Made by a program: the position numbers. From assembly GCF_054482525.1 (NCBI RefSeq), contig NZ_CM137006.1: DNA of 64,000 nt; one strand, written 5' to 3'. Below are positions 12,001-15,000 of this stretch, one piece after another. Each line of letters begins with the position of its first letter. The stretch's first letter is position 1.

Positions 12001-15000
12001 CTAAAAGAGAGAAAAAAGTAATGCCACTGGTAAACTCATTGGCCAGGTTATTCCTACCAGGAATGCACTAAGTAAACGAATATGTGTTTTCTCATGTGAG
12101 ATAAACCAGATAATGACAAAGGATATGTTCACACCAATCACATAAAAAATTAATATTTTAGAGAATAGTGCCATTTTTTATGTTCTTCTTATCCTTCCTG
12201 GCTACTTGTAAAACTGACGGAAATAGTCATCAACGGTCATAATGTTGAGGTCAAAGTCAATATCCGGTAAGTCTAAGCATTTAAGCCTGATTAAATCTTC
12301 GATTTCACTTGCGGCTAATGATGTCGTTATTGCGAAGGAATTTTCATTCAATTGTCGTGGTATCCCATATTCATCAGCCACGATAGAGGAGAAATTCATA
12401 TCATGCATCAATGATCTTAACCTTAAGAACACTGAGGAATAAGATGATGGATAATCAAAAGAAACAACATAAGTATTGAACTTGTTTTTACCTTCCATAA
12501 TATGACTCCTATCAATTTTAAACGCTCTGGGGACGCAAAACTTATTAACCCCGATCGATGATTCTCATATAGGAGATATTCTTTTTTTTTTGCTCAGTAA
12601 AGGGGATGATTTGGGACAAAAAAACGCGCTCTCTGCCCATTCTTTGTGCATCCCCCTACCCTTCAGATACTCTCCTGCATCACACCGCGGAGAGCATGAA
12701 AAATATCGTGACTCTGTACTCTCCCATCAACTGCGAATATCATCATACTCCCGTGTTTTATCAAATTCGTGTTTCGCAAATGGGCATAGTGGGATAATTT
12801 TTCGTTTTTCCCGACGCATTTTTTCCACGACTTTCGCAACCAGCTGTTTACCGATCCCTTGCCCTTTCAGGCTTTCATCGACATCGGTATGTTCGATAAT
12901 CGCTAAATTCTCTCCGGTCGGCACAAAGACAATTTCAGCGATTTGCTTGCCCTGTTCGTCATTAATGTAAAATTTATTGTGGCCTTCGCGTATTTCCATT
13001 TTACCCTCGCTTATTTATGACGGTATTTCAGCGCGCCGCTCGGGCACGTACGTTTGAGGTTAAATAACTTGCCGTTACCACGTACACTATTGCCAGAATT
13101 TGTAGTGATGCGATGGGCACAACTTTCCAGGGTAGTCAGAGCCATACCTTTACTAGCTGCATTAACCCGGGAGTAACATCACACAGGCCCCTCTTCAGGG
13201 GCCTCTCCTTGTCAGAACATATACCGGAAATTCGCGTTTATTGCGTTATCCACGTTGTATTTACCAAAGGCGGATTTCTCAAACTCCAGACCAAAGCGCA
13301 TGTTGTCCTTTATCTGTGCGTTCATGCCAACATTGAACAACATCCTGCTGTCTTTCTCCCCTTTGATCCGTTTCTCTCCGGATGCATCACGAAGAACTGT
13401 CTCGCCATTATTCAGCAGGTCAAACTGCCAGCTGGTTCCGGCACGGGCTGTCACACTCCAGTCCTTACCCCTGAAGGTTTTGCCCAGCTCAATCCCTGTT
13501 CTGCCAATCAACGGGCTGAAATCCTTGTTCTTCATACTTAGATCCATCTCACCGTCTTTCCAGTTGAATGTTTTCCCGGACACTGCGCCGTAAACCAGTT
13601 CGGCCTGAGGCTCAATAAATGTGTCTTCCGTCAGGTGATAACGGTAACCCGTTTCCGCTCCAGCATACCAGGAGTGGGTTCCGTAGTGCTTCGTACCCAG
13701 ACCGGCAAAGTTGCCTGTGTAGTCATTGTCATGGTGAATATATTTACCAATCAAATCGATATAGGCACCGGAGTTAAACAGTGCTGAAGCATACAGACCT
13801 CCCCCCACGGATTTTGTCTTCCCGCTGAACGCATCACTGTCTGCACTGCTGTCGGTATAGGTCATCGTGACACCGGTGAACAGGTCAACACCGTCCAGCG
13901 CATGTTTTTTGTCAAAACCGACCTGAACGTGGGTGTAGTTATCACTGTATCCGCCATCGGCTGAACCGGCACCGTTCATGATACGGGCCCAGGCACCGGC
14001 ATCACCGTTCGTGTCACGCAGCTCACCCATACGTTTGTTCAGGTTGTTAACTTCCGTCATAAAGTTTTTGTAGCCGGCATTCATGAAACTGTTCGCCTTC
14101 GCTGCAGCCGCTTTATCGCCTTCCGTCCTGAAACCATCCAGAATCCACTTCGTACTGCCGTCAGTGGTGTCAACACGCAGCGTCGGCGTCACACGACTGA
14201 AGCCTGTCACCCGGGTGCCCGCCTTAAAGATATCCCCTGATGTTCCGGCCGGTGCACTGACCAATGGAATATTCAGGGACTGTCCCGGAGACGGGTTCTT
14301 CATAAAGCTGACATTCAGGGTGTTGTCTGAACCGCTGGCTTTCTCCGTAATACTGATTTTATCAGCGCCCTTCAGGTCAGTGCGCAGGACAAAATCACTG
14401 CCCGAGGCATCAAGTGTCTTAACCGTCAGGGTACGGAAGGCTCCGTTTTCTTCAGACTGTACCCGGCTGTTACGGGTCGTCAGACTGTTGATGTCGGAAT
14501 CTCCGGTCAGCTGCCACAGGCCATTATTCATACTGACGTTCCCCTTACCGCCGGTGATGGCACCGTAGTACGCCGCGTTATATCCGCTGAACAACCCGGC
14601 AGCCAGAACAGGGGAGACAGAAGAGGAAACTGAGCCAGGGTTTTCGGAGCCAATACGAATGCTGGATGAACTGGTTGCATGAACATCCCCGGAAACATGC
14701 GCCTGCTGGCTGATGTTCAGCATGGCGTTATCACCGGTTAAATCATAGCCTTCTGTCATATATGTCAGTACGGGCATCCAGGTTTTATCAGCGCCATTTT
14801 CCGGCGTGCCGCTCAGGGAAAGCGTACCGTTCTTTCCAATCTGAACCCGGCCGTCACTGTAGAGCCCTTTTTGTGCCGTCAGATGACCGCCGTCACGGAC
14901 AGAAAGGGTGGAATTCACGAAAACACCACTGTTCTGCAGCAGGGCATCCGGTGAGGTGACGTTTACCTTACTGTCATGGGCTTCAATACCGCCAATGAAC

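Follow-up and report, generated by a model that had tools for sequence, protein, structure and literature searches.

The GhoT/GhoS pair of Escherichia coli K-12 (b4559/b4128, formerly YjdO/YjdK) is the founding type V toxin-antitoxin system. GhoS of K-12 is a Cas2-related endoribonuclease that cleaves the ghoT mRNA and about 20 other transcripts, the further target mRNAs belonging to purine and pyrimidine metabolism (PMC4010927), and it does not bind the GhoT toxin (PMC4010927, PMC4905990). The toxin, a peptide of the inner membrane, causes membrane damage, a fall in ATP and the formation of 'ghost' cells; transmembrane helices are predicted at residues 6-26 and 34-54 in the GhoT/OrtT family, and Phe38 is required, as toxicity is abolished by the F38R substitution (PMC4344625). 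Release of GhoT in K-12 has been attributed to the type II toxin MqsR, a GCU-specific enzyme which preferentially cleaves the ghoS mRNA and spares ghoT, one of 14 E. coli mRNAs without a GCU (PMC4905990). This cascade from MqsR to GhoST is a model for K-12 and does not serve to define type V.

Two further systems are close enough for comparison. The orphan paralogue OrtT (YdcX) resembles GhoT in belonging to PF10753, in its length of 57 aa, in its two predicted transmembrane helices and in the presence of F38, but unlike GhoT it is not encoded beside ghoS, is not neutralised by GhoS and has two GCU sites (PMC4344625). In the adherent-invasive E. coli strain NRG857c (GhoT-1/GhoS-1), ghoST is at the same locus as in K-12 and there is no MqsRA homologue, and the authors concluded that another mechanism must control ghoT (PMC7232551).

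A locus of this kind was found in the window, the whole stretch of 64,000 nt from contig NZ_CM137006.1 that was analysed here (Table 1). The original prediction had read a 57-aa GhoT peptide from its minus strand and had attributed the absence of the gene from the ORF track to a length of less than 60 aa, and both points were borne out. Minus-strand translation from 12174 to 12001 gave MALFSKILIFYVIGVNISFVIIWFISHEKTHIRLLSAFLVGITWPMSLPVALLFSLF followed by the stop codon, and this translation, proposed beforehand as the decisive check, matched GhoT exactly, being identical at 57 of 57 residues to b4559 of K-12 MG1655 in the locus comparison; the coordinates, strand and length given for the gene were all correct. 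An in-frame TAA lies two codons before the ATG, so the ghoT frame cannot extend further in the 5' direction. By its sequence, the 57-codon frame is identifiable as the known E. coli membrane toxin gene ghoT, intact and in its usual place.

When the ORF list was made with a minimum of 20 aa, as had been suggested in the form of a small-ORF search, it contained exactly 12001..12174 (minus strand, 57 aa), whereas the default 60-aa list omitted ghoT and included ghoS together with a 66-aa ORF at 12242..12442 on the plus strand. The absence of ghoT from the ORF track is a threshold artefact. The 66-aa ORF, which clears the 60-aa threshold, is antisense to ghoS and probably spurious. In terms of quality control, the 60-aa threshold hides a real toxin gene at this locus and lists an ORF that is probably not a gene.

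Table 1 Positions of the features of the ghoST locus, the neighbouring insertion and the left end of the window (blank cells, nothing recorded).
Feature	Position	Strand	Description
ghoT CDS	12001..12174	-	57 codons, ATG start, TAG stop; small hydrophobic inner-membrane toxin
ghoS-ghoT spacer	12175..12201	-	27 nt, CCAGGAAGGATAAGAAGAACATAAAAA, identical to K-12; putative ghoT ribosome-binding region
ghoS CDS	12202..12498	-	98 aa, endoribonuclease antitoxin, H32 allele
yjdJ-ghoS intergenic region	12499..12726	-	228 nt; presumed ghoST promoter and 5' UTR
Hairpin	11896..11925		Perfect 13-bp stem, GAACGAAGCAGUC-GCCU-GACUGCUUCGUUC, between the convergent ghoT and lysU stops
SPATE	13212..17141	-	1309 aa; Peptidase_S6 and autotransporter domains; TagC length, GDSGS motif, EVNNLNKRM linker
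AraC-family regulator	18297..19127	-	
Second SPATE (S6-peptidase autotransporter), TagB-like	20034..23888	-	ORF of 1284 aa from GTG; 1280 aa in the PCN033 annotation
Small 'oxidoreductase'	24349..24924	+	
Fimbrial chaperone and usher	24975..25676 and 25709..28246	+	
CbeA/YeeU-family antitoxin	36..302		
CbtA-family type IV toxin	392..766		
DUF5983 protein	763..1254		
DUF4942 protein	1553..2398		

GhoT matched Pfam family PF10753 (Toxin_GhoT_OrtT) with E = 8.9e-26 and 90.4 bits against a cut-off of 22.1, residues 4-57 of the protein being aligned with positions 1-55 of the 55-position profile. The peptide is hydrophobic (GRAVY 1.5), with 19-residue hydropathy peaks near residues 7-25 (2.6) and 34-57 (1.8), and its two hydrophobic segments are separated by the polar loop H27-E-K-T-H31 (HEKTH); phenylalanine is kept at position 38. 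The exact sequence occurs on at least 1000 contigs in a large protein collection, where it is named GhoT by NCBI as well as by UniRef ('type V toxin-antitoxin system toxin GhoT' / GHOT_ECOLI). No NCBIfam model matched either GhoT or GhoS. As PGAP names ghoT and ghoS all the same, the naming evidently proceeds by another route, and the silence of NCBIfam is not evidence against the identity of either protein.

Given that PF10753 spans both GhoT and OrtT, and that the two proteins share their length, the frame was also considered as a copy of OrtT or of some other member of the GhoT/OrtT family. However, OrtT shares just 63 % of its residues with GhoT and has two GCU sites (PMC4344625), whereas the gene in the window has none, encodes the K-12 GhoT protein without a single change and directly follows ghoS at the K-12 position of ghoST. 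OrtT was rejected on the 100 % identity to GhoT and the synteny, and such an assignment is extremely improbable. Even less credible is a chance, untranslated frame in AT-rich DNA, which might be suspected in a region of 34.5 % GC where both strands carry many neighbouring ORFs of 20-60 aa. Against it stand the full-length Pfam match (E value as above), the four nucleotide differences from K-12 ghoT, all of them synonymous, the annotation of the gene as ghoT by PGAP and the K-12 orthologue, which is an experimentally characterised protein toxin (PMC4344625, PMC4905990), and for practical purposes this reading too was rejected.

The toxin-antitoxin pair had been claimed to be complete, and this was confirmed by the match of GhoS to Pfam PF11080 (E = 2.7e-40) and by the position of ghoS, on the same strand as ghoT and 27 nt upstream of it. 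The order of genes is that of K-12, cadC-cadB-cadA-dtpC-lysU being followed by ghoT-ghoS-yjdJ on the other strand, and positions 3081..13050 of the window are colinear with K-12 at 98.8 %. The window and K-12 have in common the GhoT protein, the 27-nt spacer, the gene order, the lysU and yjdJ flanks, the distribution of GCU triplets and the hairpin beyond ghoT. The window differs from K-12 by the Y32H change in GhoS, the four synonymous changes in ghoT and two extra A upstream, by a 15.3-kb tagB/tagC island with a second copy of yjdJ beyond yjdJ, and in that its closest genomes are without mqsRA. As in K-12, ghoS has three GCU triplets (nt 121, 213 and 221) and ghoT has none; taken alone the latter says little, since ghoT is an AT-rich gene of 174 nt and 12 % of its composition-preserving shuffles are likewise free of GCU.

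A putative Shine-Dalgarno sequence is assigned to the spacer, which contains a purine-rich AAGAAG 11-16 nt and AGGAAGGA 18-25 nt before the ATG of ghoT. The yjdJ-ghoS intergenic region, presumed to hold the ghoST promoter and 5' UTR, is colinear with the 226-nt region of K-12, from which it is distinguished by a few SNPs and by the two extra A, located in an A-run. Promoter-like matches were no more frequent in the scan than expected from shuffled sequence; the sole minus-strand match was weak (9/12) and lay inside the 3' end of yjdJ (12764..12736). Plus-strand matches within ghoT were dismissed as AT-rich background. The predicted RNA fold of the 228-nt upstream region was unremarkable (z = -1.6), and nothing in Rfam matched 11400-13300 at E <= 1, so no known antisense or regulatory RNA family is represented there. 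When 11883-12000 (minus strand) was folded (z = -2.8), the stem of the hairpin between ghoT and lysU appeared in both the MFE and the centroid structure, and it is conserved in K-12. The hairpin lacks a following U-run on the ghoT strand, and no terminator was called in the scan; the element is likely to be a terminator shared by ghoT and lysU or an RNA-stabilising stem.

GhoS was identical at 97 of 98 residues to the protein of PDB entry 2LLZ ('yjdK'; E = 2.7e-61), and its DNA differs from that of K-12 by six synonymous changes and a non-synonymous one. The latter, in codon 12403..12405 (minus strand), produces Y32H, the sole amino-acid difference of the protein from both K-12 GhoS and 2LLZ. 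R28, the most important residue for RNase activity (PMC4010927), is kept, and L25 and M31 are also as in K-12; the substitution M31L turns GhoS into an inhibitor of growth, and M31L combined with L25I gives 'ArT', an RNase of broadened cleavage (PMC4010927). AlphaFold modelling from the single sequence, with moderate confidence (pLDDT 73), placed residues 21-33 within one helix, in which residue 32, the neighbour of M31, would lie one helical turn from the catalytic R28. Because the substituted residue falls in the R28 helix of the model and beside M31, the RNA specificity of the H32 protein is assumed, and no more than assumed, to be unchanged. GhoS with H32 is encoded on at least 1000 contigs of the large collection and, in absolute numbers, is a common natural allele, while the exact 52-nt segment around codon 32 was present in 37 of 5426 complete genomes, a count to be read as a rough lower bound (3803 genomes were matched at all).

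With a 901-nt query, the ghoST locus was found in 5344 of the 5426 complete E. coli genomes (98.5 %); it is part of the core genome, nearly universal in the species, rather than a mobile addiction module. Nine chromosome records, that of strain PCN033 among them, were 100 % identical over this query, and in these genomes PGAP annotates ghoT and ghoS at the corresponding positions. Across all aligned segments, PCN033 and the window are 99.98 % identical. Despite its near-universal core status, the ghoST segment 12001..12498 is markedly AT-rich, with 34.5 % GC compared to 47.6 % for lysU and 48.3 % for the window.

Beyond yjdJ the window contains an insertion of 15.3 kb (about 13051..28355) that is absent from K-12 and has 40.8 % GC versus 48.3 % for the window; ghoST is separated from it by one copy of yjdJ, in keeping with the original prediction, which had placed the pair next to an island. 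On either side of the insertion lies one copy of a 324-bp direct repeat (12727..13050 and 28356..28679, 99 % identical), which spans yjdJ in full, a spacer of 11 nt and the final 40 nt of yjdI. There are therefore two copies of yjdJ, and only at the far repeat is yjdI complete. An island carrying tagB and tagC has been described 'between yjdI and yjdK', with a duplication of yjdJ at its borders, 41 % GC and PCN033 as one of its carriers (PMC6592367), and the insertion is recognisable, from its sequence features, as this published autotransporter island. The repeat ends exactly at the stop codon of yjdJ and the yjdJ-ghoS intergenic region is outside it; insertion of the virulence island therefore left the region upstream of ghoST untouched and spared the neighbouring operon. 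The tagC gene points towards yjdJ-ghoS-ghoT, and putative read-through from tagC into ghoST is conceivable.

Several other features of the window were recorded. Its first 2531 positions are the end of a different island, missing in PCN033, and the CbeA/YeeU- and CbtA-family genes located there represent a second toxin-antitoxin pair in the window. A stretch of 22 nt at about 2510..2531 reproduces the 3' end of tRNA-Phe (pheU) imperfectly, with one G missing. As ARAGORN found no intact tRNA anywhere in the window, this copy looks like the distal att repeat of an island integrated at pheU. An IS4 element of 1426 bp (39677..41102), bordered by 13-bp target duplications (CAGCCAGATGCTG; 39664..39676 and 41103..41115), encodes a transposase of 448 aa with Nterm_IS4 and DDE_Tnp_1 domains (39690..41036, minus strand) and interrupts melR, of which a 197-aa N-terminal fragment is found at 39086..39679; PCN033 lacks this insertion. 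The PCN033 annotation lists crfC (locus L003, 10454..12682) as a pseudogene interrupted by an internal stop.

Neither mqsR nor mqsA was found in the 64-kb window by tblastn with both proteins. In PCN033 (NZ_CP006632.1) the genes ygiS-mqsA-mqsR are deleted between parC and ygiV (3382578..3383122; locus L005, 18579..19123), and tblastn with the same two proteins found no mqsA or mqsR in this interval. When a chimeric query made of ghoST from the window and mqsRA from K-12 was used, the nine records with 100 % identical ghoST ranked first, with one place each, and none of these nine chromosomes carried mqsRA at megablast sensitivity. The absence of mqsRA is thus that seen in close relatives and in the 64-kb window, the source genome itself being outside the complete-genome collection (best match of window positions 1-3100, 99.2 %). 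With no mqsRA in the closest complete genomes, the MqsR trigger probably does not operate in this lineage. Searched alone, mqsRA was present in 2298 of 5426 complete genomes (42 %), always at an identity of at least 99 %, and ghoST occurs without it in more than half of the complete E. coli genomes. From the difference between this count and the 5344 genomes with ghoST it follows that the MqsR cascade cannot be the general route of GhoT release in E. coli. Both the absence of mqsRA and the same conclusion had already been reported for strain NRG857c (PMC7232551).

The locus is very probably an intact, chromosomal, core-genome ghoST operon of type V with a mechanism like that of K-12, in which the MqsR trigger is probably not operating. 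By homology with K-12, ghoS and ghoT would form a two-gene unit transcribed from the minus strand, the antitoxin gene leading, and GhoS, as a stable Cas2-like endoribonuclease, would cut the ghoT part of the message, so that little GhoT would be made; that the H32 protein cleaves the ghoT mRNA we infer from K-12 GhoS, which has Y32. Any ghoT message that escaped would give rise to the 57-aa two-helix peptide, which would insert into the inner membrane, dissipate the proton-motive force, lower ATP and slow or stop growth. Since the peptide is 100 % identical to the K-12 protein, it would be expected to be toxic by damaging the membrane and depleting ATP.

Without mqsRA, the same intact genes might have ceased to be a stress-released toxin-antitoxin module, GhoT being permanently silenced and GhoS being kept for its other RNAs. 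Such a state would fit the lack of mqsRA in the closest genomes, the occurrence of ghoST without mqsRA in more than half of the complete genomes, the cleavage of about 20 other mRNAs by GhoS (PMC4010927) and the near-universal presence of ghoST as a core locus. Yet distant lineages differ in ghoT only at synonymous positions and the GhoT protein is perfectly conserved, an argument for selection on the toxin itself. In NRG857c, which is also without mqsRA, the ghoT mRNA remains responsive to acid and to the intramacrophage environment (PMC7232551). Permanent silencing is regarded as unlikely. A somewhat smaller chance is given to the idea that ghoST of the mqsRA-less lineage is wired differently from that of K-12, through a shifted RNA specificity of GhoS or through another nuclease or stress trigger. 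The H32 residue may shift the specificity of the antitoxin, since it would be one turn from R28 and is next to the sensitive M31. An operon that works in the K-12 manner, probably apart from the MqsR trigger, remains the preferred reading.

The finding of ghoT is correct but ordinary, as the gene is already known, has been experimentally characterised in K-12 and is annotated by standard pipelines. What the comparison means for E. coli concerns its control: with ghoST in 98.5 % of the complete genomes and MqsR, the sole activator described, in 42 %, the textbook cascade is not general.
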